Shown here: positions 2,562-29,645 of the stretch, piece by piece | How positions within the stretch are numbered: the stretch's first letter is position 1 | Layout of the letters: each line of letters begins with the position of its first letter | Source of the DNA: a virus | Taxonomy: Duplodnaviria; Caudoviricetes | IMG/VR virus record: IMGVR_UViG_3300024331_000007 | Coordinates: 64,001-128,000 of that record | Reading direction: 5' to 3' (one strand) | Length of the DNA stretch: 64,000 bases | Notes under the pieces: model-generated | What the model was told of the DNA's origin: nothing | The model's database searches: none | The model's input: the letters and a program-made list of their open reading frames with translations, nothing else | Position numbers and translations under genes: made by a program

Positions 2562-2903
2562 ATGGTTGAGAAAGACAAAACGACTGTGAAGCGCAAAAAG
2601 CGCACCGACCGTACTCACATCATCTATCGCCTTGCTGTTGCGAATATGGAGTACATTGGAATCACCGCCAAAACTCAATCGACGGTTTTGAAGTCTGTCC
2701 GTCTTCGTTTCGCGAAGCATGCAGAACGTGCCAGAAACGAAAACAAGCCGTGGCCTCTTTACAAGGCAATTAGGAAGTTTGGAATTGACCAGTTTGAACT
2801 GGAAATCGTTGAAATTCTCCGTGGCAAGGCTGCTGCTCATGCTCGCGAAGTTGAGCTAATCAAGGTTCGCAATCCCAAACTTAATCTGGCGAGTGCAAAA
2901 TGA
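2562..2903 (+). CDS. Small GIY-YIG nuclease-like protein, first gene of the array operon
   Basis: HIIY...YIGIT...RFAKH...LYKAIRKFG...REVELI...LN pattern. Confidence 0.7.
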   Translation: MVEKDKTTVKRKKRTDRTHIIYRLAVANMEYIGITAKTQSTVLKSVRLRFAKHAERARNENKPWPLYKAIRKFGIDQFELEIVEILRGKAAAHAREVELIKVRNPKLNLASAK

Positions 2904-3115
2904 AAGTTGGCGATTGTGGTTGGGTAAAAATTCATGCTGACATGACTCAGAAATCTTTTGGTCAGATTGTCACTATTGTAACGGGTGGTGCTGTTACTGT
3001 TTTTCTTGTTCGATCTTCTTACCATCACGGCGCAATTGCTCCTTATTTTGAGGACGAGTTTGAATTGATAGAAAATGAAGGCGAAGCAATGGCTTTACTT
3101 TTGGAGTATGCATGA
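2900..3115 (+). CDS. Array member 1, SH3/KOW-like (MKVGD) with tail GEAMALLLEYA
   Basis: ATGA overlaps at both ends; shared tail. Confidence 0.8.
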   Translation: MKVGDCGWVKIHADMTQKSFGQIVTIVTGGAVTVFLVRSSYHHGAIAPYFEDEFELIENEGEAMALLLEYA

Positions 3116-3366
3116 TAGATAAAAATGGTCATGCGCTATCTATCGGTGATTGGGTAAAGTTCCGTCCCTCCGAAAAATTCCAAATCTATTTTGGAGAAAT
3201 TGTCGGAACGTGGCAGGGTCAAGAGTTCAATAAAGTTGGCGTGTGCGTTCGTGTTATTAATTATCCTCACCCACCTCAAAAAGATGGAACTTGGCATATG
3301 TATGATGCTTCCATGACATTCTTGACCAAAGAGCAATTATTGTTGGAACTTTTGGAGAACGCATGA
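3112..3366 (+). CDS. Array member 2, YopX-like start (DKNG...IGDWV) with tail KEQLLLELLENA
   Basis: SD GGAG inside previous tail; ATGA overlap. Confidence 0.8.
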   Translation: MIDKNGHALSIGDWVKFRPSEKFQIYFGEIVGTWQGQEFNKVGVCVRVINYPHPPQKDGTWHMYDASMTFLTKEQLLLELLENA

Positions 3367-3587
3367 CTGAGTGGCAGGGTTTTGAACTTCCAGATGGATC
3401 ATTGATTCGGTATCGTGACAATGGCGACGAACGTATTGGATCGATATTCACTAATATGTATCACCAGAAACAATTTTTAGACATAAACCCAAAAGCCAAA
3501 ATGTCAAATTGGAACATATCGCAATGGGAAATGTATTCAATAGCAACAGAAGCCGACGCAATGCTTTATTTGTTGGAGAACGTATGA
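3363..3587 (+). CDS. Array member 3, LPxG type, tail TEADAMLYLLENV
   Basis: ATGA overlap; shared tail. Confidence 0.8.
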   Translation: MTEWQGFELPDGSLIRYRDNGDERIGSIFTNMYHQKQFLDINPKAKMSNWNISQWEMYSIATEADAMLYLLENV

Positions 3588-3814
3588 CGAGCGCAGAATT
3601 TAAATCGCTGAAGCCGAATATGATTGTCTATCATGTTGAGGGAGGCAAAAAGGTTTTCGGTCATGTGTCTGCGATATATCGCGCCTATCCAAACCTTTTA
3701 GGTTTCAGTAGATTTAAAGATGCGTGGGCATCTTGGATTCCAATAGACGATCCAAAAGATTTTCATATGGCATCAGAAGCCGAATCTTTTTTGTGGAAGC
3801 TGGAGAACGCATGA
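3584..3814 (+). CDS. Array member 4 (start revised to MTSAEF), tail SEAESFLWKLENA
   Basis: ATG at 3584 overlaps previous TGA after GGAG. Confidence 0.8.
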   Translation: MTSAEFKSLKPNMIVYHVEGGKKVFGHVSAIYRAYPNLLGFSRFKDAWASWIPIDDPKDFHMASEAESFLWKLENA

Positions 3815-4047
3815 GCACATTGATTGGTCAAGATCGTAACGGACAATTGGTTGAGGTTGGCGATATTGTTCTGGTCATAGATCAGGAGATTCCAATTGAA
3901 TTGGCAGTCATTCTTGATTTTCAGTATCCATTTACGGACCCGATTGTTCTAAAATTTGCAGATGGTTCTGAAGTTCATAGGCAATCGGCAGAAATTGAGA
4001 AGGTTTCAAATGAAAAAGCTGTGTTGTGGAAGCTGGAGAATCTATGA
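3811..4047 (+). CDS. Array member 5 (start revised to MSTLIG), YopX-like DRNG...VGDIV, tail SNEKAVLWKLENL
   Basis: ATGA overlap after GGAG. Confidence 0.8.
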   Translation: MSTLIGQDRNGQLVEVGDIVLVIDQEIPIELAVILDFQYPFTDPIVLKFADGSEVHRQSAEIEKVSNEKAVLWKLENL

Positions 4048-4262
4048 TTAACCTTAATATGCTCCCAGATGGAACACTCCTTTGGTACGAACAAAACGAA
4101 GACAAGATTTTGGGAACATATTCCAAGAACACTGGCGAGTTTGTTGTTAGAGGGGTAGTTGATTCTCGTACAAATGATGCGTGGCCTATCAGGAATTTAT
4201 CAATGTATCGTATTGCGACTGAATCAGAAGAGATGATGTTGTACATGTTGGAGAACGCATGA
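4044..4262 (+). CDS. Array member 6 (start revised to MINLNM), LPDG type, tail TESEEMMLYMLENA
   Basis: ATGA overlap after GGAG. Confidence 0.8.
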   Translation: MINLNMLPDGTLLWYEQNEDKILGTYSKNTGEFVVRGVVDSRTNDAWPIRNLSMYRIATESEEMMLYMLENA

Positions 4263-4438
4263 ATCTACTTGGACGAATCGTACTGGACATTTTCGTGTTT
4301 GGGTTTCCTGTGCTTGCCATCGTTGGATTTGCCGCAGGCTGGAGAATTGTGAAAGTCGGCGGGCCAAAATTTGATCGTGAAGTGAAAGACTTTTTCACGT
4401 CCAAGGAAAAGTTGATGCTCAGAAAGTTGGAGTCATGA
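4259..4438 (+). CDS. Array member 7, 59 aa single-pass membrane protein with tail SKEKLMLRKLES
   Basis: Hand translation MNLLGRIVLDIFVFGFPVLAIVGFAAGWRIVKVGGPKFDREVKDFFTSKEKLMLRKLES; below the ORF track cutoff; ATGA overlaps at both ends. Confidence 0.8.
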   Translation: MNLLGRIVLDIFVFGFPVLAIVGFAAGWRIVKVGGPKFDREVKDFFTSKEKLMLRKLES

Positions 4439-4641
4439 ATATTGGTGATTACGTTAGGGTGCATTTGGAAACCGAGGCGAGGATTCGTGTTGGACGTATA
4501 GAAGAAATTGAAAAATACAGTGAATGCGCGTTTCCATATTACGTTCGATTCTCCGCCAGCAGAACTTGCTCTTGCTCGCGGAATGAACTAGAGATAATGT
4601 CTGAAGCTGAAGCAATGCTATACATGTTGGAGAACGTATGA
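4435..4641 (+). CDS. Array member 8, KOW/SH3-like (MNIGDYV), tail SEAEAMLYMLENV
   Basis: Clear paralog of 5650-5859. Confidence 0.85.
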   Translation: MNIGDYVRVHLETEARIRVGRIEEIEKYSECAFPYYVRFSASRTCSCSRNELEIMSEAEAMLYMLENV

Positions 4642-4829
4642 AGATCGGTGATTTGGTTTACGTATTGTTAGACCACAAACATCCAGTTGTGGGGGAAATT
4701 ATTTCCCTTGAGCCTGAGATTCGACTGAGGAATCTGTATGGACGAGAAGCTCCGTTGTTCTCTACAAGAGATACAATTAGGTTATTGACAGACGGCGAAG
4801 CGATGCTCTACAAACTGGAGAACGCATGA
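4638..4829 (+). CDS. Array member 9, KOW/SH3-like (MKIGDLV), tail TDGEAMLYKLENA
   Basis: ATGA overlap; shared tail. Confidence 0.85.
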   Translation: MKIGDLVYVLLDHKHPVVGEIISLEPEIRLRNLYGREAPLFSTRDTIRLLTDGEAMLYKLENA

Positions 4830-5020
4830 ATCCGAAGATTGGAGATTTTGTTCGAATTAAACAAACTGGAGAAGTTGGGCTTATTGTTAATTTGTTTCCA
4901 AAGGCCCGATACCCATTTTTGATTAATACTCAATCTATTGGTAATAACATGTATATGGAACGTGAGTTTCAATTTGCCACAAACGAAGAGGCCATGTTAT
5001 ACAAACTGGAGAACGCATGA
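4826..5020 (+). CDS. Array member 10, KOW/SH3-like (KIGDFV), tail TNEEAMLYKLENA
   Basis: ATGA overlap; shared tail. Confidence 0.85.
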   Translation: MNPKIGDFVRIKQTGEVGLIVNLFPKARYPFLINTQSIGNNMYMEREFQFATNEEAMLYKLENA

Positions 5021-5241
5021 AAAGAAAAACAAAGGTCGGTGACATAATTAGATTGTCATTCGCAGATTCGTCCATACTGCCAAGAATCGGACAGGTTGTT
5101 GATAAGAGAAAAACATTTTTCATCGTTGAAATTAATAAATGGAGATGGCTTGTAAAGCATACCGCTTATGGAGGGAAAAGATATTACATTACTCATTTGA
5201 CGGACGAAGAGGCGATGTTGTACAAGTTGGAGGATGCATAA
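5017..5241 (+). CDS. Array member 11, KOW/SH3-like (KVGDII), tail TDEEAMLYKLEDA
   Basis: ATGA overlap at start, TAATG overlap at end. Confidence 0.85.
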   Translation: MKRKTKVGDIIRLSFADSSILPRIGQVVDKRKTFFIVEINKWRWLVKHTAYGGKRYYITHLTDEEAMLYKLEDA

Positions 5242-5417
5242 TGTTTAAGGTCGGTGATTACGTTCGAATTTTGACGGGGCCGCGAAAAGGTATGATCGGT
5301 GAAATAACATCCACATATGGAAGTGGTATGTATGTTCATCCATTCTACATGTATCCATTCGAAGTCGAATACGTTTCACCCGAAGAAGCAATGGTCTACA
5401 AACTGGAGAACGCATGA
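5241..5417 (+). CDS. Array member 12 (start revised to MFKVGD), KOW motif protein, tail SPEEAMVYKLENA
   Basis: VGDYVRILTGPRKGMIGEI is a canonical KOW motif. Confidence 0.85.
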   Translation: MFKVGDYVRILTGPRKGMIGEITSTYGSGMYVHPFYMYPFEVEYVSPEEAMVYKLENA

Positions 5418-5653
5418 GGAAAGAAGACGGACTTGCGTTGCCAGAGGGAACGTTTTTATTTTACGATAATCCTCGTCTTGGAAGAAGTTGGTACGGTACT
5501 CTTCGTTTTGAGAGAGATCAGTATGGACAGATTGAGCCTTCGTTCGAATGGACGAGGAACGGTGATAAAAAATTCTGGCCGTTGAGGGCATGGAAATTAT
5601 ATCGTCTCGCCACTGATGAAGAAGTTATGCTATACCTTTTGGAGAACGCATGA
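5414..5653 (+). CDS. Array member 13, LPEG type, tail TDEEVMLYLLENA
   Basis: ATGA overlap; shared tail. Confidence 0.85.
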   Translation: MRKEDGLALPEGTFLFYDNPRLGRSWYGTLRFERDQYGQIEPSFEWTRNGDKKFWPLRAWKLYRLATDEEVMLYLLENA

Positions 5654-5859
5654 AGATTGGTGATTACGTCAAAGTCAAGCTGGAAATTTCCAAGCAGGTT
5701 CGAGTTGGCCGCATTGACTGTATTTTGAATAGTGGACTCTTTCATGAATATCCGATTCGTGTTGCATTTCCAGATGCAAAATTTTGTTCATGTACTCGGA
5801 ATGAAGTGAAGATTATCTCAAATGAAGAAGCAATGCTTTGGATGTTGGAGAACGCATGA
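5650..5859 (+). CDS. Array member 14, KOW/SH3-like (MKIGDYV), tail SNEEAMLWMLENA
   Basis: Paralog of 4435-4641 (VRVGRI...CSCxRNE). Confidence 0.85.
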   Translation: MKIGDYVKVKLEISKQVRVGRIDCILNSGLFHEYPIRVAFPDAKFCSCTRNEVKIISNEEAMLWMLENA

Positions 5860-6089
5860 AAGAAATAGATGCCAAGCAGCTTCCAAAAGATGCTACAATT
5901 TTTTATAATCAGGGTGGTCGTAGCAGAGCTTTTGGTTATATAGAGAAAAAAGATGGAGTATTCTATTTCATTCCAGCGTATTTTAGAGATAGCGATGTCG
6001 ATTTAAATCGATGGCGCATTTCTGCATGGTATGCCTACGAAGTAATGTCCACAGAAGAATTTGTTCTTTGGAGATTGGAGAACGCATGA
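5856..6089 (+). CDS. Array member 15 (start revised to MKEIDA), LP type, tail STEEFVLWRLENA
   Basis: ATGA overlap after GGAG. Confidence 0.8.
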   Translation: MKEIDAKQLPKDATIFYNQGGRSRAFGYIEKKDGVFYFIPAYFRDSDVDLNRWRISAWYAYEVMSTEEFVLWRLENA

Positions 6090-6295
6090 CATTCGATGAT
6101 ATGTGTGAACTCGAAGAAGGCACTGTTTTGTGGTGTGAAAATACTAATTGCCCTATACTTGGAAAATTGCATTTTCATAACGGCAACGAGCCGATGTTTC
6201 AACACAATTCAGTGGGATGGCTGATCAGAGATGCACATTTATATTCAGTTGCCACCGACGAAGAGGCCATGTTATACACATTGGAGAACGCATGA
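6086..6295 (+). CDS. Array member 16 (start revised to MTFDDM), LEEGT type, tail TDEEAMLYTLENA
   Basis: ATGA overlap after GGAG. Confidence 0.8.
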   Translation: MTFDDMCELEEGTVLWCENTNCPILGKLHFHNGNEPMFQHNSVGWLIRDAHLYSVATDEEAMLYTLENA

Positions 6296-6513
6296 CAAAG
6301 GAAGAAATTTGGAGTCTCCCCTCAGGATCATATCTCTGTTGTACAAATATGTTTGGTGATGCAAGGTTTGGACGGATTCGAAAGAGAAAAGATGCAAGAA
6401 TCTTTCATACTTTGACAGGGGATAGCAAGCCATTGTCATTTAAAATTAGCAGATTTGATTATTATCGCGTAGCTTCAAAAGAAGAATACGTTCTGTGGAG
6501 ACTTGAACGATGA
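6292..6513 (+). CDS. Array member 17 (start revised to MTKEEI), LPSG type, tail SKEEYVLWRLER
   Basis: ATGA overlap after GGAG. Confidence 0.8.
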   Translation: MTKEEIWSLPSGSYLCCTNMFGDARFGRIRKRKDARIFHTLTGDSKPLSFKISRFDYYRVASKEEYVLWRLER

Positions 6514-19457: not shown

Positions 19458-20069
19458 ATGAAAAAGTTCAGCGAATTTTTGGCGGAAAGTGTCCGTAATT
19501 ACGAGTATAATGTCAAGTTGGCTTTCAAGCCTGACAATGAAATGATGGGTGCAATCGAAAACGCATTGCAGAAGTACAGCCTTGTGTCGATTACCGCACC
19601 AAAAAGTCTCCCAATCCAGCGCGTTGACAAGGACTTTCCCGGCTTCAAAGCTCCAGAAACCTATGTGTTCACCGTTGAACTTGCATACCCTTCCAGCGCA
19701 AACATGATTCGCCACACCATCGCCTCGGTTGGTTTCCAGTTTGAACAGGTTGCCGTTAGCTCACCTCAGCATGACGCCAGCATGGATAAGGAAGATAATG
19801 ATGTTGCTGCAAATACCAGCGACAAAGCATTACTTGATCGCCCATATGATCCACAGAACAACGAAGAAATCAGCGGTGAGAATTTCGGCGATAATTATAA
19901 TGATCGTCTAGTTAAGAACAGCATCGGCAGCACAGATCAGATGATACCTCGCGAATTTAAGCGCACAAATGGCAAAACTTTGAACGATAAAGAATTTAAA
20001 ATTGGCAAGGAGTCTGCTGTGGGGTCTAAACAGAATAAGATTCCTCCTGTGAAGTCTTTTGCTCGTTAA
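19458..20069 (+). CDS. Probable virion/internal head protein (start revised to MKKFSEFLAES)
   Basis: ATAAATA late promoter and GAGG SD; N-terminus resembles T4 capsid targeting sequence MKTYQEFIAE. Confidence 0.6.
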   Translation: MKKFSEFLAESVRNYEYNVKLAFKPDNEMMGAIENALQKYSLVSITAPKSLPIQRVDKDFPGFKAPETYVFTVELAYPSSANMIRHTIASVGFQFEQVAVSSPQHDASMDKEDNDVAANTSDKALLDRPYDPQNNEEISGENFGDNYNDRLVKNSIGSTDQMIPREFKRTNGKTLNDKEFKIGKESAVGSKQNKIPPVKSFAR

Positions 20070-20778: not shown

Positions 20779-20819
20779 CTCAAAATCCACAGGTTACGCT
20801 AAATATTACTGAGGTTTCT

Positions 20820-21134
20820 ATGAACAATGATGATCTAAAGAAGTTGCGAGACATTTGTACAGAAGGGGCTACGGACAATGGTTCTCATCAGTTTATTTTT
20901 GGCGATTCATTAGAAAAAGCAGCGCAGCATATTAGTAATCAGGCATATCAAGGGAAAACAAGAGAATCTTTTCTGAAAGGCGCAGAAAAATTACAAGGTA
21001 TCAAGACACTACTGATTTTTATGCGAGGAGAAAATGCCCCTCAGCATTTGTTTTTAACTGCATTGGTTGCATTGGGGAATGAAATAAACAGGCTGTATAC
21101 CGCAGCAGATTCGGTTTCTAATAAGGAAATATAA
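20820..21134 (+). CDS. Hypothetical late protein
   Basis: CTAAATA at about 20800 and GAGG SD. Confidence 0.65.
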   Translation: MNNDDLKKLRDICTEGATDNGSHQFIFGDSLEKAAQHISNQAYQGKTRESFLKGAEKLQGIKTLLIFMRGENAPQHLFLTALVALGNEINRLYTAADSVSNKEI

Positions 21135-21135
21135 A

Positions 21136-24100
21136 ATGATTGGCATGGACATGGGCCGCATACTTACGATTTTCAACAGCATGAAGAATGTTAACATGAG
21201 CGGCACCCCTGCGGCTGAAGAACCCGTCGAAGAAATCGAAACTAAGCCTTGTGCTGAATGCGTGAATTGCAGCGGTACGGGCCATCTCGATTTGGGATGG
21301 GGAGAAACTGTTCCCTGTTTGGAATGTCAAACAACGGGAAAGATTCTGGAATACAGTGATGGAGTTGATTCAGGTCCAATCGGTGACAGTGGAGCGGAAG
21401 ACGAAGGTCCAGCAGGTAAGTATGGCGCTGGAGAAATGTGGCAGAAAGATGAAATGGACTTTCCTCCTGAGAGTTTTTTCAAGACAAAAATTGCTGGCGA
21501 AAAGAAATCCGATCAGGATGTTAATGATCACGACTTAACTGTGGACGATCAACTTATACAGGATCATTTGGAAGAAGGCACCGATAAGTTGGATGAAGAA
21601 CGCGAAATGTGCCGCAGATGCGGAAATCCTACAACTGCACCGGGTATAGGGTTGTGTGACGATTGCTACAAAACTTCATATGAACATTCAATGGATAGAG
21701 TGAATCAAGTAACTCAAAAAAGACGCGCTGGAGATAGAGTTGTTGAGACAGCACCTCCAGATCAGGAAGATTGGGTTAAGAAAAACAAGTCTCGATTCAA
21801 GAAAGAATATGGCGACAAGAAGGGCGAAGAAGTTCTTTACGCTACGGCTTGGAAGAACCACAATAAGAAAAAGACCAACGAAGGTGAAAACACCGTGAAG
21901 AAGACAGTCGATGAATGTAATGGTTGTTCCGCTGGCGCTCCTGCCCAAGATCGTGATGCCGTTTCCGTCAATGCATCTTACAATAGTGACATGGACGAAA
22001 AGAGTGTTACTGTTACTGCTCGTAATGGTAGTGCTGATGAATTGATGCACATTCTCAAGCTGAGTGGCATTATGCCCGGTGAAGAGAAGACTGAGATTGC
22101 TCCTGAGCCACAGCCAGCCGCTGTTACTGGATTGTCGGCAGTAGTTGTTGGTGAAGGCAAAGAAGAAGTAGCAGCATCAATTGAAAACAAAAAGAAATAT
22201 GAACACAAATTTAAGCCGGGTAAGAGTGGCCGTATCTGCGTCCATGCTGGCTCCCATTCTCATTGTGGAAAGGTAGCAGATAATTATTTGCATGTTGGCT
22301 CACCTAAATGGAAAGCGGATAACGATAGACTACAGAGTAAATTGAACGAAGAGTTCCACCCAGACTTGCACGACAGTGACGCCGAAAGAGATTCGATGTT
22401 CTGCGACAGATGTTTTGGTTATCATGACGGTCCGTGCAAGGAAGAAACAAATTTCGAAGGATTGTGCGATCATTGTGGCGATAATGAAGCAATTGACGGC
22501 ACGAAATTCTGCCGTGATTGCCACGAATTAGGATTTGGTGAGGATTGGTATCAGGAACAGCTTGAAAAAGAAATGGCTGAACGCGATCCGTTTGCTATTC
22601 ACGAAGGACACATTTACGAATTGGATACACCTATTTGTTCCAATTGTGGATCGCCAAGAGAAGCAGGTATTCACAGCGGAGCAGATGAAGAAAAGCTCTG
22701 CGCTGATTGCTACAAGTATGCTCACATGGATGAATTGACCAATCCAGCCGACGAAGGTGCATACGATTTTGATAGAGACACAAATTGGGAACCAGATGAT
22801 TTCGAAGAAATGAATCGAAATGAAGCCAATGATTATACAAACGAATCAAAATTGAACGAAACTTCTGGTTATTATGTCACTGGATACACTCTAAAATCCA
22901 GTCAAGATAACAAATTTCGCCAGTGTTTTGTTAAATTAAATTTAGAAAGAGAACACTCTCTTAGCCCAAATTATATTCTTGTATTCGGTAAACAATTTGC
23001 AACTATTTTTGATGATTTAAACGAAGCAAAAAAAGCTGCTGCAAATGCTAAATCAATTTATAAATTACATAGCGTTTCAGTAAAGCCACAAATGGCAGAT
23101 ATTATTGAATTTCCTAAAAAAGTTCAAGAGAAGGTAACTAAAATGAATGAATCACTATCACCAAAAAGAGAAAACACTGGTTTGAACGGTGCTCCTAAGA
23201 CATGGCAGAATGAACCAAACGAACAGATGGCAGGTTGGAAGGCTCTCGTTCAGGATACCGAAGGATTGAGTCAGCCTCATGATATGTTCAATGCCGTGAA
23301 GGGTAGCGACAACATCATGACTGTTGCCTCAAAGAAGAGAGAAACAGAAAAGCCATCGGGTGATTTCGCCGCCAATGCTGTAATTGTTAGTGCAATTGCC
23401 GAAAAATTACAGAAGAAGTTCGATGTGCTGGAAGAATCAGATGATTCAGTTGAACGTATGACATGCTGCAAATGTGGCAAGAATACTTCGCGTTTCAATT
23501 GCAAGTGCGGTCACAAGATATGCTCAAGCTGCAAGGAAGCTCCAGCAAATAAGAAAAAGACTGTTAAGGAAGGTACACTAACAGAAGACCGTTGCATTTC
23601 GTGCGATGCCCGTATACCATCTGGCAGCGACATTGACCAGTGCAAGAAATGCTACAAAAAAGATCACCCAGAAGAAGGCAAGTCTAAAAAAAAGGTAACT
23701 GAAGCTAATTCCAGTAAAGCCGTAAACTGCTGTTCCTGCGGTAAAAACGGAATTGCCAAAAAATCCGAGAAATTTTCCAAATCTCATTGGACTAAGGCTC
23801 CAATGGAATGCAAGTCGTGTGGTCATAAGATTTGTACTCGCTGTAAAACACCTAAAAAGAAGGTAACTGAAGATGAATCTCTTTCGATTCGTTATTCAAA
23901 GAATCTTCCTGAGAAAAATACAGCACCATATACTCTATTGTTTACTGCAACTGATAAAAGCGGAGTAAAGAAAGGACATTTGGGTATTTGGGCTGACTCT
24001 GATCAGGAAGCTATTCAGAAAGGAATTGCAAAGATTGATCAGGAAAATAATTACGTCGGCAAAAAATATCAATTTGCTATTATTGGAATCGAAGACAATT

Positions 24101-25527
24101 TTGGTAGTCCTCGACGTAAACAAATTTATCCCGACAACAAGGTTGAGGAATCAACTGCTTCTAAAGTAGCCAAGCAGAAAGAAGACCATCCAGAAAAGTA
24201 TTGCAAGACAAAGAAGTGCCTCTATCGCACTGATGCTGACTATTGTCCAAAACATAAGCCAACAAAAAAGGTAAATGAATCTGGAAACTTCTCACAATAT
24301 TCAGATGAGTTCTATAATAAGGTTGCTGAACAAGAAAAACCAATGGAAGAGTTTTTGCGCAATGCTGGTTGGGAAAGCAAGGAAATTGTCGCACCTAACC
24401 AGAGAAAGCAATTGATGTGGTTACAACCCGGAAAGCCTTGGAGAGAATATAGTACTTTGAATGCTTATCATACCGCAAAAGGCATGACTGAATCTAAGAA
24501 TACTAAAGAACCAAAAAAGAAAAAGGTATGTTCTGATTGTGGTGGTTGCCCTCCAACTAAGGGTAGCAATTATTGCAAAAAATGCGCAGGTATGAACGAA
24601 TCCAAACTTGGCGATCTTTCTTGGCAGGGGAAGAATCCAAAAAAATTCTGGACCAAAATAACATACAATCTGGATAAGATACTATTCAAATTGTTTTGGG
24701 GTGAAACCTTTCCAAAGGATAGACCTCACTATGATACCAAGACAATTACAAAATATCTGAAGGACTATAACTTATCGGATGAGCAGATCAAGAACATTCG
24801 TCTCTGCGCCATTACAGCAATGAAATCTGCCATTAAGGATGCAGGTATCCCAGACGATAAAGTCTACAAGCTTCAGGATAGTTTTACAATTTACAATTTC
24901 ATCCCATCTTTCAATCGCGATGAAGAAAGACAGATGAGGGACGATATTGATACAGCCGCTCGACACAAATTTGAATTGCTTTTGAAGAAATATGGTCACG
25001 AATTAACGGAGTCTACAATGAAACCAATTGAAGTAACAGAAGAAGTATCCAAGTCGTCAGCAAAGAAGCTACAGGCAGCATTAGATAACCTTGAACAGAA
25101 GGTAAAGAAGTTGGGCGCACCTCCTTCTCCACAGACAAAGATCACGCAATCAATGGAACGCTTCACTGATAAGATTGCAGCTATCAAGGCAGCTTTGGCA
25201 AAGAGAAAAGGCGAAGACGAAGAGGAATCTTCTGAAGACGAAAAGCCAAAAGCCAAGAAGTCTGAAGGCGACGGCGAAAAGTCTGAAAAGAAACCTTTCG
25301 AAAAGAAGGAAAAGTCTGAGAAGTCTGAACCTGATGAAGAAGGCAAAGAAGCTGAGCCAAAGCCAAAGGAACAAAAAGAAACCGCCAGCAACAAGCCAAA
25401 TACAAACGGCGATGACAAGGCACCTGTTGGTAAGGTTAAGGATATTGGCAAAGGAATCTATGAGTCTGAAGTTGAAAAGATGCAGGGATTCCGCAGCATG
25501 CTTGTTGAAGGTTTTGAAAAAGAGTAA
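21136..25527 (+). CDS. 1463 aa modular zinc-finger-rich probable internal head polyprotein
   Basis: At least ten Cys clusters separated by recurring [LVMI]xE-[SGATD] sites; late region. Confidence 0.65.
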   Translation: MIGMDMGRILTIFNSMKNVNMSGTPAAEEPVEEIETKPCAECVNCSGTGHLDLGWGETVPCLECQTTGKILEYSDGVDSGPIGDSGAEDEGPAGKYGAGEMWQKDEMDFPPESFFKTKIAGEKKSDQDVNDHDLTVDDQLIQDHLEEGTDKLDEEREMCRRCGNPTTAPGIGLCDDCYKTSYEHSMDRVNQVTQKRRAGDRVVETAPPDQEDWVKKNKSRFKKEYGDKKGEEVLYATAWKNHNKKKTNEGENTVKKTVDECNGCSAGAPAQDRDAVSVNASYNSDMDEKSVTVTARNGSADELMHILKLSGIMPGEEKTEIAPEPQPAAVTGLSAVVVGEGKEEVAASIENKKKYEHKFKPGKSGRICVHAGSHSHCGKVADNYLHVGSPKWKADNDRLQSKLNEEFHPDLHDSDAERDSMFCDRCFGYHDGPCKEETNFEGLCDHCGDNEAIDGTKFCRDCHELGFGEDWYQEQLEKEMAERDPFAIHEGHIYELDTPICSNCGSPREAGIHSGADEEKLCADCYKYAHMDELTNPADEGAYDFDRDTNWEPDDFEEMNRNEANDYTNESKLNETSGYYVTGYTLKSSQDNKFRQCFVKLNLEREHSLSPNYILVFGKQFATIFDDLNEAKKAAANAKSIYKLHSVSVKPQMADIIEFPKKVQEKVTKMNESLSPKRENTGLNGAPKTWQNEPNEQMAGWKALVQDTEGLSQPHDMFNAVKGSDNIMTVASKKRETEKPSGDFAANAVIVSAIAEKLQKKFDVLEESDDSVERMTCCKCGKNTSRFNCKCGHKICSSCKEAPANKKKTVKEGTLTEDRCISCDARIPSGSDIDQCKKCYKKDHPEEGKSKKKVTEANSSKAVNCCSCGKNGIAKKSEKFSKSHWTKAPMECKSCGHKICTRCKTPKKKVTEDESLSIRYSKNLPEKNTAPYTLLFTATDKSGVKKGHLGIWADSDQEAIQKGIAKIDQENNYVGKKYQFAIIGIEDNFGSPRRKQIYPDNKVEESTASKVAKQKEDHPEKYCKTKKCLYRTDADYCPKHKPTKKVNESGNFSQYSDEFYNKVAEQEKPMEEFLRNAGWESKEIVAPNQRKQLMWLQPGKPWREYSTLNAYHTAKGMTESKNTKEPKKKKVCSDCGGCPPTKGSNYCKKCAGMNESKLGDLSWQGKNPKKFWTKITYNLDKILFKLFWGETFPKDRPHYDTKTITKYLKDYNLSDEQIKNIRLCAITAMKSAIKDAGIPDDKVYKLQDSFTIYNFIPSFNRDEERQMRDDIDTAARHKFELLLKKYGHELTESTMKPIEVTEEVSKSSAKKLQAALDNLEQKVKKLGAPPSPQTKITQSMERFTDKIAAIKAALAKRKGEDEEESSEDEKPKAKKSEGDGEKSEKKPFEKKEKSEKSEPDEEGKEAEPKPKEQKETASNKPNTNGDDKAPVGKVKDIGKGIYESEVEKMQGFRSMLVEGFEKE

Positions 25528-25539
25528 CGAGGGAACATC

Positions 25540-26205
25540 ATGAAGAGTTCTATTGATCTACTGAAGGAATATCGCGATCTTATCGAAGGGAGGGTATCTG
25601 TAAGCGAGGATGAAACCCCTCAAGAGATATCGCCCCGTGCCGATTTGGACAATTTCATGACCAAATGGGGATTTGTAAAGATCGACGATCCATTACATCA
25701 CAAGTTGCAATCCTATGTAAAGCGCAGCGTCTTTCTGAAGGTAATGATTGATGATGAAGATGATTTTTGGACAATTGAAGATGTAAATTCAGAGGGTGAA
25801 TACCTCGAAGATGGTATTGGTGTCGAATCATTAAAACAAACTGTCATGAAATTGATTCGTGCGGCAAAAGGTCTTCGTGAAAGCACCAACAACATTGTCA
25901 AGGGATCATGGATTCCTCGTCATGATGAAGGACAGTTAACTTGGAAGGACAGGGATGGAATTTATCTCGTTCTACCCGGTAGCAATTCGGCATATGGCAG
26001 CAATGATGGTGGATTCAGTTCAGTGGAAGACGCCGAAGAATTTAACCAAAAAGAACTCGGCGGAAAATGGAAGGTTCAAGTAAATGGAGAACCTCCACAG
26101 CATGGAAAGTTCAATACCTGTTCTGAGTGTGATGGAAAGGGCTGTCCAGAATGTGAGTTCACAGGTAAATACGATGTGGGTGTAAACTCGGAACATTACC
26201 TATAA
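25540..26205 (+). CDS. Probable internal head protein
   Basis: N-terminal MKSSIDLLKEYRDLIEG; C-terminal CSECDGKGCPEC. Confidence 0.55.
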   Translation: MKSSIDLLKEYRDLIEGRVSVSEDETPQEISPRADLDNFMTKWGFVKIDDPLHHKLQSYVKRSVFLKVMIDDEDDFWTIEDVNSEGEYLEDGIGVESLKQTVMKLIRAAKGLRESTNNIVKGSWIPRHDEGQLTWKDRDGIYLVLPGSNSAYGSNDGGFSSVEDAEEFNQKELGGKWKVQVNGEPPQHGKFNTCSECDGKGCPECEFTGKYDVGVNSEHYL

Positions 26206-26215
26206 GGGAGATACA

Positions 26216-26599
26216 ATGCATAAGTCAAGCAGTGAAATTTTAAGAGAATATGCCAACATTATCGCTGAAGGTGATTTGGGCAATCCATATAATAATACCG
26301 CCGAAGATACAGAAGACTTCAACTATGGCGAAGAGGGCGGTCCTATGCGTGATGCTATCAATCAGAATGCCGATGACGAAGAAAATGGCGTTGATCTTCC
26401 AGATGAATCCTTGATGGAACCAGAATCTAAAGACGATTCTGAATTTCTGACATATGATCAAGTTCCAGAAAATGATCCTGTCATTAATCTATCCCGCGAT
26501 TTACAGGTTGATTCCGACAAGATCAGTAGATGGCTGAGCAAAAACAAATATGAATTAACTCCTGTTGGTGGTTTATCTAATAAGGAAGGAAATATCTAA
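26216..26599 (+). CDS. Acidic probable internal head protein
   Basis: N-terminal MHKSSSEILREYANIIAEG, homologous to 25540 start. Confidence 0.55.
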   Translation: MHKSSSEILREYANIIAEGDLGNPYNNTAEDTEDFNYGEEGGPMRDAINQNADDEENGVDLPDESLMEPESKDDSEFLTYDQVPENDPVINLSRDLQVDSDKISRWLSKNKYELTPVGGLSNKEGNI

Positions 26600-26600
26600 T

Positions 26601-26909
26601 ATGGATCGTCGTCTTACTGATTTAGAAGGAACTAGCCTACCAAATGGTACTCCATTGAAGACTTGGCCTCGTCCAACTGGCTCTTTTCACGAGTGGCGTT
26701 ATGGAATCCTTGAACTCAGAAAAGGTCAGCCGTGGTTTCAATCCATTGCAGGTGCCGCATGGCCCATTCAATATTGGGATGACTTTGCTTTGGCATCGAA
26801 AGAAGAGTTTGTGATGAAGAAACTGGAACATGATAGAAGGAAATTGGAATCCTCCACGGACTTCTTCAGAAAATATTCAGATATTATCTCTGAAACTGAG
26901 AATAGCTAA
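26601..26909 (+). CDS. Array-family (LPNG type) domain fused to a head-protein motif (start revised to MDRRLT)
   Basis: SLPNGT...WPI..W...ASKEEFVMKKLEH then SSTDFFRKYSDIISE. Confidence 0.7.
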   Translation: MDRRLTDLEGTSLPNGTPLKTWPRPTGSFHEWRYGILELRKGQPWFQSIAGAAWPIQYWDDFALASKEEFVMKKLEHDRRKLESSTDFFRKYSDIISETENS

Positions 26910-27307
26910 TGAGAGAAATTTCAAAACTAAGACCTCGACGCTTTCCTGTTAATGAGGCAAAACAGGATATGATGGTCGCTGATAACGAAATAACTAATGG
27001 GTTAGATAGCGATCAGTCTGCTGCTTTACCAAATGCAAGATGGTATGATGGCGGGACGCCATATTTTCATTATAGAGCAATGGTTATGGCTGCAAGTTTG
27101 CCAAATCCACCTAAAATCGGCGTCTCGTCGTTCTCCCAAGATATGCCGTTTTCTTCTGGTTATACTCAAGCCGATGATGACATAATTTCAGCAGCAGCAA
27201 AACTGTGTGGCTATCCGGGTAAACGGCTAAGTAATTCAAGAAGTATGGAAAGTGATGAAATACATAAGGTTTCGCCTAATAATCACAATTCTGGTAAGCA
27301 TAAATAA
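26909..27307 (+). CDS. Hypothetical late protein
   Basis: 132 aa; stop codon overlaps the next late promoter. Confidence 0.65.
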   Translation: MREISKLRPRRFPVNEAKQDMMVADNEITNGLDSDQSAALPNARWYDGGTPYFHYRAMVMAASLPNPPKIGVSSFSQDMPFSSGYTQADDDIISAAAKLCGYPGKRLSNSRSMESDEIHKVSPNNHNSGKHK

Positions 27308-27361
27308 TATCGGTCGCGGATCACTAGTCCCACCGATTCTAATGCATACGGAGCATCAGCT
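27300..27361 (+). promoter_or_regulatory. Late promoter plus structured leader, copy 2
   Basis: ATAAATA AT ATCGGT CGC GGAT CACTA GTCC C ACCGAT TCTA ATGC ATACGGA GCAT CAGC T ATG. Confidence 0.75.
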
Positions 27362-28048
27362 ATGCCTATTTACTGCCAAGAATTTCTTGATCTAATCCAA
27401 TCTATTTCCTTTGATAACAAATATTTAAAATGGTATATAACTCTATGTGCCCAAGCGTCCTTGCGAGGATCAGATCGTTCTGTCATTAATCATAACATTG
27501 GATATGTCGAACAACATCACATTATTCCGAAATCTTTAAAAATTGTTAACGAAAAAGTTGATAAAAATTTAGTATACTTAACACCCAGAGAGCATTTTCT
27601 TTGTCATAGATTTTTAGCTAAGATGTTCAGTAATTCGTTATGGAAGAAGAAAATGAACGCTGCGGTTTTCATGATGTGTAATACTACTTACATGATTTCT
27701 AGTCGGCAATATGAATTTCTCAGATTCCAGCATTTCAAAACAAATATACCATCGATACATACTCGTAAGAAAATGGCAGCTAGTCTGAAAAACCTTATAT
27801 GGATTAAAAGAGAACAAACAAATGAATTTTTGCGAGTTTCATCGGAGAAAGCTCAGGAATTTTACAAACTAGGTTTTATTAAAGGCAGAAAACCTCGAAT
27901 CAATGCTCCAGTACATTCCATAGCAAATAGAAGAAAAATATCAATGTCCCATATACTACGAGTTAAAATTACTTGTGAATATTGTGGTTTGGTGTGTTCA
28001 AAACACATGCATACGAGATGGCATGGGAACAAATGTAAGGCTAAATAA
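27362..28048 (+). CDS. HNH homing endonuclease
   Basis: NKYLKWY...EQHHIIPKS...NLVYLTPREHFLCH; C-terminal CEYCG...RWHGNKCK. Confidence 0.85.
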   Translation: MPIYCQEFLDLIQSISFDNKYLKWYITLCAQASLRGSDRSVINHNIGYVEQHHIIPKSLKIVNEKVDKNLVYLTPREHFLCHRFLAKMFSNSLWKKKMNAAVFMMCNTTYMISSRQYEFLRFQHFKTNIPSIHTRKKMAASLKNLIWIKREQTNEFLRVSSEKAQEFYKLGFIKGRKPRINAPVHSIANRRKISMSHILRVKITCEYCGLVCSKHMHTRWHGNKCKAK

Positions 28049-28052
28049 CTAT

Positions 28053-29645
28053 ATGGGAAAAACGTTAGGCGAAACAGAACTAATTAAGCGTCCTCATAAA
28101 AAGACTGTTTACACAAAACAACAATTAGAAGAATTTCGTAAATGTGCAGACCCCGTAACTGGGCCATTTTACTTTTTAAGTAATTACTTCTATGTACAAC
28201 ATCCAAAACAGGGCAAGATGCTGTATAAGCCCTATTCCTATCAGATTCGTCTAATTGACGCTTATCACAACTTCAAAAGAATAGTGGCTATGATGCCCCG
28301 CCAGTGTGGGAAGACAGTTACCGCCGCTGGTTATCTTCTTTGGTCTTCCATGTTTAAAAGCGACCAAACTATTCTTATTGCTGCCCACAAGTTCTCAGGC
28401 GCATCAGAAATCATGAGCCGTATTAGATTTGGCTATGAAAATGTTCCTGATTTTATTCGTGCTGGTATCACAGAATACAATAAGCAAAGCATTGTATTTG
28501 ATAACGGGTCAAGAGTTATCGCACAAACCACAACAGAAACCACAGGTCGTGGTATGTCCATCTCCATCCTATATTCTGATGAGATGTCCTCAGTACGTCC
28601 AACGATTGCTCGTGAGTTCTGGACTTCCTGTTCTCTTACATTGAGCACAGGTGGTAAAGCAATTGTCACATCTACTCCAAACAATTCAGATGATCTTTTC
28701 GCAGACATCTGGCACAATGCCAACAAGACTGAGGATGAGTATGGAAATACTATTCCGAACGGACTTGGTTCTAATGGCTTTAAGGCCGTAACTGCAAAAT
28801 GGAGCGAACATCCCGAAAGAGATGATGCATGGGCAGATGAGCAGAGAGAATTGGTTGGAGATGAACGTTTCGCCAGAGAAATTCTGTGCGAGTTCATCAG
28901 CTTTGATGAAACTCTAATCAATCCATTCGTCCTGAATCAACTACAAGGAATTGATCCAATTGATAAGCAGGGGACTGTGCGCTGGTATGTTAAGCCCTCA
29001 AAGGGAAACATTTATCTGCTATCTCTTGATCCAAGTATCGGAACAGGCGGCGATCCCGCCGCAATTCAAGTATTTGAAGCCAAGAGCAATAGACAAGTTG
29101 CAGAATGGACTCATAACAAGACACCTATTGAAGCCCAAATAAAACTGCTCACCGATATTACCAAATATTTGGTTAGCGTCACTGAGAATAGTAGCAGTGT
29201 TTACTGGAGTATCGAAAACAATACCTTGGGCGAGGCTGCATTAGTTGAAATTCGACATGTTGGTGAAGAGAACATCCCCGGTATTTTCCTGAGCGAACCT
29301 ATAAAGATGGGTTCTGTTAGAAAATTTCGCAAGGGATTCAATACGACAAACTCCAACAAACTGAGTGCATGCGCCAAATTGAAGAATATGATTGAGCATA
29401 AGAAAATGCCAATCTACAGTCGAAAATTAATCAGCGAATTAAAGACCTTTGTCAGTGTTGAAAACACCTATCGCGCAAAGCCGGGTGAAACTGACGATTT
29501 GGTCACAGCCCTAATCACGTTGGTTCGTATGATGGAAGCTCTGAAGAACTACATCCCAGAATTGTCAGAAATTCGAGAGTTGAATGAGGATTCAAATATG
29601 CCTCTGCCGTTCAGCATGTCAACAAGCTCTAGCTCCTACTACTAA
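28053..29645 (+). CDS. terL: Terminase large subunit, T4 gp17-like (start revised to MGKTLG)
   Basis: PRQCGKT Walker A, GRG...ILYSDE Walker B, IVTSTPN, LSLDPSIG and DDLVTA nuclease motifs. Confidence 0.95.
   Translation: MGKTLGETELIKRPHKKTVYTKQQLEEFRKCADPVTGPFYFLSNYFYVQHPKQGKMLYKPYSYQIRLIDAYHNFKRIVAMMPRQCGKTVTAAGYLLWSSMFKSDQTILIAAHKFSGASEIMSRIRFGYENVPDFIRAGITEYNKQSIVFDNGSRVIAQTTTETTGRGMSISILYSDEMSSVRPTIAREFWTSCSLTLSTGGKAIVTSTPNNSDDLFADIWHNANKTEDEYGNTIPNGLGSNGFKAVTAKWSEHPERDDAWADEQRELVGDERFAREILCEFISFDETLINPFVLNQLQGIDPIDKQGTVRWYVKPSKGNIYLLSLDPSIGTGGDPAAIQVFEAKSNRQVAEWTHNKTPIEAQIKLLTDITKYLVSVTENSSSVYWSIENNTLGEAALVEIRHVGEENIPGIFLSEPIKMGSVRKFRKGFNTTNSNKLSACAKLKNMIEHKKMPIYSRKLISELKTFVSVENTYRAKPGETDDLVTALITLVRMMEALKNYIPELSEIRELNEDSNMPLPFSMSTSSSSYY

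Follow-up and report, generated by a model that had tools for sequence, protein, structure and literature searches.

How does a small protein that begins like a unit of a mini-barrel gene array come to end in what looks like a leader of its neighbours, and what might such an ending do? The question is raised by P0001, a gene in the window analysed here, a 64,000-nt stretch that spans bases 64001-128000 of one 359,890-bp contig from an uncultured soil jumbo phage. When the region was searched with blastn, the sole match was the large terminase, in the jumbo phages PA5oct, Atu_ph07 and XaC1. P0001 (26601-26909) lies in a plus-strand operon which runs in the order 20820, 21136-25527, 25540, 26216, P0001, 26909, homing endonuclease, large terminase and a sheath/gp15-like gene (genes are named by position; see Table 1). 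Pfam and PHROGs searches with P0001, 25540, 26216 and 26909 returned no family match. The product of the polyprotein-like gene contains 36 [LIVM]xE motifs, compared to 22.7 +/- 4.2 in shuffled sequences, for a pattern that was picked post hoc. We infer that the neighbours of P0001 are head proteins, as an earlier note on this DNA had called them.

Table 1. Features of the P0001 locus and of related genes. Positions are those of the window unless stated otherwise; a slash marks the end of a leader or leader-like start.
Feature	Position	Strand	Basis or remark
Coupled array of 17 mini-barrel genes	2900..6513	+	7 units are of the LPxG type
Gene starting MKKFSEFLAE/S	19458..20069	+	PHROG match annotated virion structural protein
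Gene 20820, first in operon order	20820	+	Start MNNDDLKKLRDICTE/G, leader-like
Polyprotein-like gene, 1463 aa, heads the cargo cluster	21136..25527	+	Rich in [LIVM]xE motifs
Gene 25540, 221 aa	25540..26205	+	Leader MKSSIDLLKEYRDLIE/G; zinc-ribbon-like motif at C-terminus
Gene 26216, acidic, 127 aa	26216..26599	+	N-terminal leader MHKSSSEILREYANIIAE/G; conserved C-end ..YELTPVGGLSNKEGNI
Shine-Dalgarno-like AAGGAAGGA for P0001	26582..26590	+	Within last codons of gene 26216; sequence read
P0001: barrel, decayed tag helix, linker and leader-like tail	26601..26909	+	ORF and orthologs
P0001 residues 1-77, LPxG-subfamily small beta-barrel (SLPNGT, WPIQYW) with C-terminal helix	26601..26831	+	HMM, profile, model
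P0001 linker DRRKL, residues 78-82	26832..26846	+	Ortholog alignment, substitution counts
P0001 locus-leader copy, residues 83-98, ESSTDFFRKYSDIISE, ends I-S-E	26847..26894	+	Leader HMM, ortholog conservation, model helix
P0001 residues 99-102 (TENS) and stop TAA	26895..26909	+	Stop overlaps the ATG of 26909 (TAATG)
Gene 26909, conserved, 132 aa, leaderless, no known family	26909..27307	+	Always just 5' of the large terminase
Homing-endonuclease gene	27362-28048		Between 26909 and terminase; phrog_655, E 3e-30
Large terminase	28053..29645	+	Separated from 26909 by the endonuclease gene 27362-28048
Gene pair lying between protease and capsid genes	genome 358294-359013 and 359044-359890 (L020 6295-7011 and 7045-7890)		Lie where T4 has its scaffold gene

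P0001 is a real, conserved gene. Its reading frame extends from the ATG at 26601 to the TAA at 26907-26909 and encodes 102 aa. Gene 26216 stops at 26597-26599, one base ahead of the P0001 ATG, and AAGGAAGGA lies 10 nt 5' of that start, a layout also found in the related contigs L001 and L005. P0001 has two orthologs of the same length and layout, P0002 (81% identical to it) and P0003 (80%), so that the gene, its tail and the TAATG overlap are present in three lineages, ie the window, P0002 (four samples) and P0003. The overlap is the usual coupling device, both across the operon and at the sites in relatives where P0001 is missing. GAGAAT in the last codons of P0001 doubles as the ribosome site of gene 26909, whose frame is -1 relative to that of P0001.

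Residues 1-77 belong, by several profile comparisons, to the LPxG/LENA-tail mini-barrel family, in agreement with the earlier note. An HMM made from the seven LPxG units of the array matched P0001 at E 4.7e-5 in a search of the 4251 ORFs of the genome; the alignment (AAWPIQYW..ASKEEFVMKKLE) extends past the tag and covers the subfamily-specific W-P-I..W motif, and SLPNGT and AAWPIQYW fall in the LPxG and W-P-I..W columns of the array. With hhalign, the three orthologs against the seven array units gave a probability of 96.3% and E 1.6e-9 (residues 6-77 versus 2-76), the iterated family HMM scored P0001 at E 4.8e-7, and BLASTP aligned it to array unit 6292-6513 with 34% identity over 77 aa (E 1e-8). 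P0001 has in common with the 17-gene array and 20 dispersed paralogs the fold, LPxG, WPI..W and a C-terminal helix with an EE..h..LE pattern. It differs from the array in the absence of the 15-nt seam YTGGAGAACGCATGA (no match within 3 mismatches at 26601-26909, as against 15 matching array junctions), in a tag which is non-terminal and fast-evolving, in its leader tail and in its place in a structural/packaging operon. The array tag, ..AMLYxLENA at the protein end, is not found in P0001. The corresponding helix is degenerate (..EEFVMKKLEH), is no longer terminal and is followed by 25 further residues, and its decay has gone further in the orthologs, eg EDFDAKKAEH.

In the AF2 model of P0001 (mean pLDDT 85.9) a barrel of five strands, at residues 18-21, 34-40, 43-48, 53-55 and 62-64, is followed by one continuous helix from residue 67 to 101. 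Foldseek with this model against the PDB gave no match at E <= 0.001. The best fold matches of the barrel were of the Tudor/KOW/SH3 kind, with rmsd 2.5 A over 54-63 residues and middling Z values of 5-6.8, and the fold assignment rests on these VIA-align Z values, all < 7.

The domain had been described as an orphan, which holds only in a relative sense, as the iterated family HMM found 38 members at at least 10 loci of the genome, several of them solitary. The proposal that it had hopped from the array 20 kb away was not borne out. There is no sign of a recent move: the P0001 barrel is 21-36% identical to array units, the seam is absent and the family is dispersed. Other members were noted outside the window. 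Six LENA-tail barrel genes lie on the minus strand at genome 250614-256898, and genome 147645-148935 (83645-84935 in window numbering), also on the minus strand, holds a 191-aa ORF with two family barrels and a 270-aa ORF in which an N-terminal Cys-rich part is joined to a C-terminal barrel ending ..ERAVLLSLEM.

The tail was compared with an HMM that left out P0001 and was built on 13 N-terminal leaders, taken from 25540- and 26216-type genes of the window and of six related contigs. Residues 84-101 were matched at E 4.5e-4 (4251 genome ORFs). P0001 was the third-best match in the genome, behind two of the training genes, and the only non-training match at that level; the next had E 0.048. The ortholog tails scored less well, at E 0.008 and 0.5. 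The tail of P0001 ends I-S-E/T and the neighbouring leaders end I-A-E/G and L-I-E/G. It is, by these measures, homologous to the 25540/26216-type leaders, again as the earlier note had read it. Identity is 7/19 residues with the leader of the adjacent gene 26216 and 9-11/19 with leaders in L009, L012 and L014. A recent duplication of the neighbour's leader, considered as a source of the tail, was ruled out by the former figure. The family-HMM, profile and leader-HMM E values place both resemblances, that of the barrel and that of the tail, beyond chance, and the reading of P0001 as a chimera, part family barrel and part head-cluster leader, is supported.

In relatives, leaders of this locus stand at the head of at least eight unrelated bodies, among them zinc-ribbon, acidic, 77-, 93- and 368-aa proteins. 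They are also found internally, at the joints of in-frame fusions, in a 202-aa protein of L017 (27 bits), in P0027 (20 bits; see below) and in a polyprotein::25540-like fusion of L014. The L017 protein (2118-2726) has MKSSLDLLKEYRKIVSE at about residue 128, and in L014 (1-2028) the end of the polyprotein passes through ..YESSTDFLRKYRDFV.. into a 25540-like zinc-ribbon tail.

Crude substitution counts among the orthologs were used to compare the parts of P0001. In the barrel (residues 12-66) pN was 0.04-0.07 and pN/pS 0.09. The tag and linker (67-83) are the fastest-evolving part, with pN 0.16-0.25 and pN/pS 0.18-0.22, so the segment that is normally the best conserved in the family is the least conserved in P0001. 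For the leader (84-98) pN was 0.06-0.11, pS 0.2-0.7 and pN/pS 0.08-0.26, an estimate which is crude because the stretch is only 15 codons long. From the low pN and the presence of synonymous changes, both the barrel and the core of the leader appear to be maintained, and the tail, on this crude estimate, is under purifying selection.

The empty site that had been predicted does exist. In five related lineages (L009; L010/L024; L012/L013; L016; L017/L018), and probably in a sixth contig, a 26216-like gene ending ..ELTPIGGLSNKQGNV directly abuts or overlaps a 26909-like gene. The N-terminal part of the terminase is 88% identical to that of the window in L001, 82% in L017 and 81% in L009, the latter two having empty sites, and because of this order the history is simplest with a single gain on the branch of the window, L001 and L005. 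Within this sub-lineage, whose three lineages stand at about 80% identity, the locus is fixed. In L007/L008 a different 85-residue domain occupies the position of P0001, in-frame with the 26909-like protein, which in nearly all relatives is leaderless and free-standing. The number and kind of leader-bearing genes vary in every contig, and the locus is clearly plastic.

Several minor features of the relatives were recorded. The 85-residue domain (L007 5755-6408, the same in L008 and found also in P0009) is unrelated to P0001 and apparently helical; its fusion joint, ..NPVIRE/SRVISKLR, fits an I-x-E site, and the leader HMM gave no match to it. The 26216-like proteins, present in all relatives (alignment A6), are extremely acidic and their middle part varies, but the leader is retained. 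Their C-end, ..W/FLK.N.YELTPIGGLSN..GNV, is near-invariant, and the gene always adjoins a 26909-like gene; the pair 5' of the terminase may be functionally linked, and 26909 might conceivably have a small-terminase-like role. The first 23 residues of gene 26909 match the L001 type at 22 of 23 positions, and the rest is of the type found in L016, L017 and L007, at 76-86% identity where L001 reaches 58%, which suggests that the gene is a mosaic with a recombination breakpoint just inside it, adjoining the P0001 junction. The homing-endonuclease gene at 27362-28048 overlaps a long upstream frame of the terminase ORF. Its site is empty in L001, L009, L012 and L016, and is filled by other inserts in L007 and L010 (a different endonuclease-like gene; DUF4116 and DUF723).

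An exhaustive phmmer search with P0001 (1.84 billion representatives) returned the ortholog cluster and one other protein, P0027, a 178-aa ORF on the soil metagenome contig L014. Single-sequence searches miss the array members because the P0001 barrel is too diverged. P0027 opens with a barrel, passes through a tag (..LAKLEEN) and a leader (..GEILKKYSDIIREAE) and closes with the acidic body of a 26216-like protein in full; a 26909-like gene is next downstream. It resembles P0001 in having a barrel of the same subfamily (30% identity, 76 aa), the same join of tag to leader, the leader core KYSDII.E.E and the same neighbourhood, directly 5' of a 26909-like gene. It differs in that the acidic body is intact down to its YELTPIGGLSN end, and in that it stands in place of the 26216-like gene and not after it. 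No further examples came from tblastn with the 26909 protein and P0027 against 50,697 deposited phage genomes (no match) or from an IMG/VR pattern scan for P0001 (no match); a JGI metagenome scan for P0001 found L002 again and nothing else, and a word-index search with P0027 found P0027 alone.

The earlier note had a unit inserted into the start of a head-cluster gene. That arrangement is found on L014, as P0027, and not in the window, where the barrel is followed by a leader stub, some 20 codons from the start of such a gene, with no head-protein body: P0001 stops four codons after it, and 26909 is a separate gene. The order of events may be reconstructed as follows. In-frame read-through would have joined a barrel unit to the 5' end of a 26216-type gene, an arrangement still seen in P0027, and the body would then have been lost to leave a barrel and leader stub beside an intact copy of 26216. 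The last codons of P0001, GAGAATAGCTAATG, resemble the junction GGAAATGTATAATG between 26216-like and 26909-like genes at empty sites, which fits an internal deletion that took the body out of a barrel::leader::body gene placed behind an intact copy of 26216. Constraint on the ribosome site could also be a source of that similarity. Either one old fusion or two independent ones are possible. The P0001 and P0027 barrels scored 39.7 bits with each other and 38.5 and 40.8 bits with array units, and because neither is nearer to the other than to the array, P0001 and P0027 may have arisen separately.

The most probable function for the tail is suggested by phage T4. In T4 the internal proteins share only a short leader, which targets them to the core and is cut off behind a Glu by the gp21 protease; the locus that encodes them is a hotspot (PMC9026906, PMC3012670, PMC12373910). 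That leader, MKTYQEFIAE as printed (PMC8442874), loads foreign proteins into the head when attached to them (Mullaney and Black 1996, reviewed in PMC9026906, PMC3012670), and the gp21 cleavage motif is (L/I)-x-E (PMC9026906, PMC5694885). The present genome encodes a prohead protease of this type (Peptidase_S77, T4 gp21; PF03420, 85.5 bits, genome 356996-357439), a T4-type portal (phrog_213) and a Gp23-family capsid protein. Between the protease and capsid genes lie two genes that belong to no known family; their starts, MSTILEELTKYRTILSE/D and MKTLSELMTDYRAPLLE/A, are leader-like, and their products are candidates for core/scaffold proteins. As in IPI, IPII and IPIII of T4, a short leader ending hydrophobic-x-Glu is the sole conserved element on unrelated small proteins, and as there the locus is hypervariable and the phage is T4-type with a gp21-type protease. 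The start MKKFSEFLAE of gene 19458..20069 is itself close to the T4 leader, and the [LIVM]xE enrichment of the polyprotein, for a pattern picked post hoc, fits as well. By this analogy the locus leader would play the part that the capsid-targeting sequence plays in T4, as an amphipathic helix with hydrophobic-x-Glu at its end.

We therefore propose, with a probability of about 0.5, that P0001 is loaded into the prohead by means of its C-terminal leader copy, as a cargo like the T4 internal proteins. P0001 would be translated by coupling between genes 26216 and 26909, and its tail would dock the barrel onto the prohead core in the way that the T4 internal proteins dock. The protease might clip after ISE98 and remove TENS only. 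Because the leader is C-terminal and only four residues would be removed, the barrel would keep its address helix after the cut; it would then be enclosed with the DNA and possibly injected. A cut of P0027 after its IRE site would give a P0001-like product.

The likeness to T4 is not complete. The leader of the internal proteins is N-terminal and is removed, whereas that of P0001 occupies residues 83-98 of 102 and would not be detached by cleavage; it is about 17 residues long here, compared to 10 in T4. The cargo, too, would come from a mini-protein family that has expanded in the phage itself, unlike the T4 internal proteins. Closer in position are T4 Alt, from which a C-terminal segment is cut away at LTE-619, and the SPN3US protease gp245, which is thought to be targeted by its own C-terminus (PMC5694885). 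In line with what is proposed for P0001, they show that gp21-type systems also recognise signals close to a C-terminus and that such regions may direct proteins to the prohead. At 63 residues in Alt, the segments concerned are long; their sequences are unrelated to that of the P0001 tail, and a targeting role for them is only suggested. Encapsulins provide a further parallel, as a short C-terminal cargo-loading peptide sends unrelated cargo into an HK97-fold shell. Their peptides differ from the P0001 tail in sequence and belong to another system, so the analogy is one of logic only.

The main rival to loading into the head is that the tail is a relic with no targeting role. An old recombination or deletion would have removed the body of a 26216-type gene, P0001 would be cytoplasmic like other mini-barrels, and the tail would stabilise the terminal helix and carry the coupling signals for 26909. 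In its favour, nothing but a leader stub follows the barrel, with no body, and family members are found in other odd fusions (a double barrel, and a zinc-ribbon with a barrel). The T4 targeting sequence, moreover, has been shown to work at the N-terminus only, and is known only as a signal of that kind (PMC9026906). The last codons of P0001 hold the ribosome site of 26909 and reach into its start, and part of the conservation of the tail could have this cause; that site, however, covers only the last 3-4 codons, and the near-invariant core SST.FFR.YSDIISE lies 15-45 nt upstream. Against the relic, too, the adjacent tag and linker, which are also helical, diverge freely, and the full cleavage-type I-S-E ending is kept in all three P0001 lineages. 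We consider this explanation unlikely, though a serious competitor. It is improbable that P0001 acts instead as a regulator or decoy, its tail binding the core or the protease at the site used by cargo leaders, so that it would tune loading or protease timing and would not itself be packaged as cargo. Its position between cargo genes and packaging genes would suit such a role, and after the ISE cut the barrel would, as we see it, keep its docking helix, unlike cargo released from an N-terminal leader. P0001 is missing from most relatives, however, and cannot therefore be a core assembly factor.

Two further explanations are more remote. P0001 and 26909 might be made as one protein by a -1 shift at TAATG, with the leader internal, for which the 217-aa fused gene of L007/L008 offers a comparison: there and in P0009 the 26909-like protein has an in-frame N-terminal extension ending ..VIRE/S, and 26909 is indeed in the -1 frame. 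We regard this as very improbable. A slippery heptamer precedes the stop in 0/3 orthologs, which is the basis of the rejection, TAATG is the normal coupling device in the operon and at empty sites, and the L007 extension is a different domain which the leader HMM misses. Least probable of all is a chance resemblance between a helical C-terminal extension and the N-termini of its neighbours. The motif is short and made of common helix-forming residues, but the leader-HMM match stands out among the 4251 ORFs with nothing comparable elsewhere in 360 kb, as many as 9-11 of 19 residues agree with the L009, L012 and L014 leaders, and P0027 has the same barrel-to-leader junction running on into a full 26216-like protein.

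The proposal that P0001 is prohead cargo may be carried further, to a form which we hold to be rather doubtful. The leader would be both a position-independent capsid address and a recombination joint, so that any ORF reading through into it from either side becomes head cargo. In P0001 it would pre-load one barrel of an otherwise early-expressed family into the capsid, to reach the host along with the DNA and ahead of all transcription, and fusions of barrel to leader, of the P0001 and the P0027 type, would have arisen repeatedly because they are useful.

If the tail works as proposed, the T4 capsid-targeting idea would extend to a C-terminal or internal address peptide, and the phage would be drawing its injected cargo from a mini-protein family that it has itself expanded. 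Phage engineering would gain from a portable packaging tag for C-termini, and the leader could be a simple flag for candidate capsid cargo genes in the annotation of uncultured jumbo phages. The P0001 locus, with an empty site and a full-fusion relative, is a clean and well-documented case of address-peptide shuffling. P0001 is also a natural experiment on the conserved tail of its family. There the tag is freed from its role in the seam (ribosome site and stop-start) and evolves fastest, which suggests that much of its conservation in the array comes from constraint on the DNA.

Scans for sigma-70-like promoters and for terminators gave results at chance level, and Rfam had no match in 25000-28500. 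The T4 late promoter TATAAATA is absent from the window, and GATAAATA has no plus-strand site upstream of the P0001 operon. Inspection by eye only did reveal GCTAAATA at 20796-20820 of the window, with GAGG and then the gene 20820 ATG behind it; it may be this phage's variant of a late promoter, heading the cargo operon.
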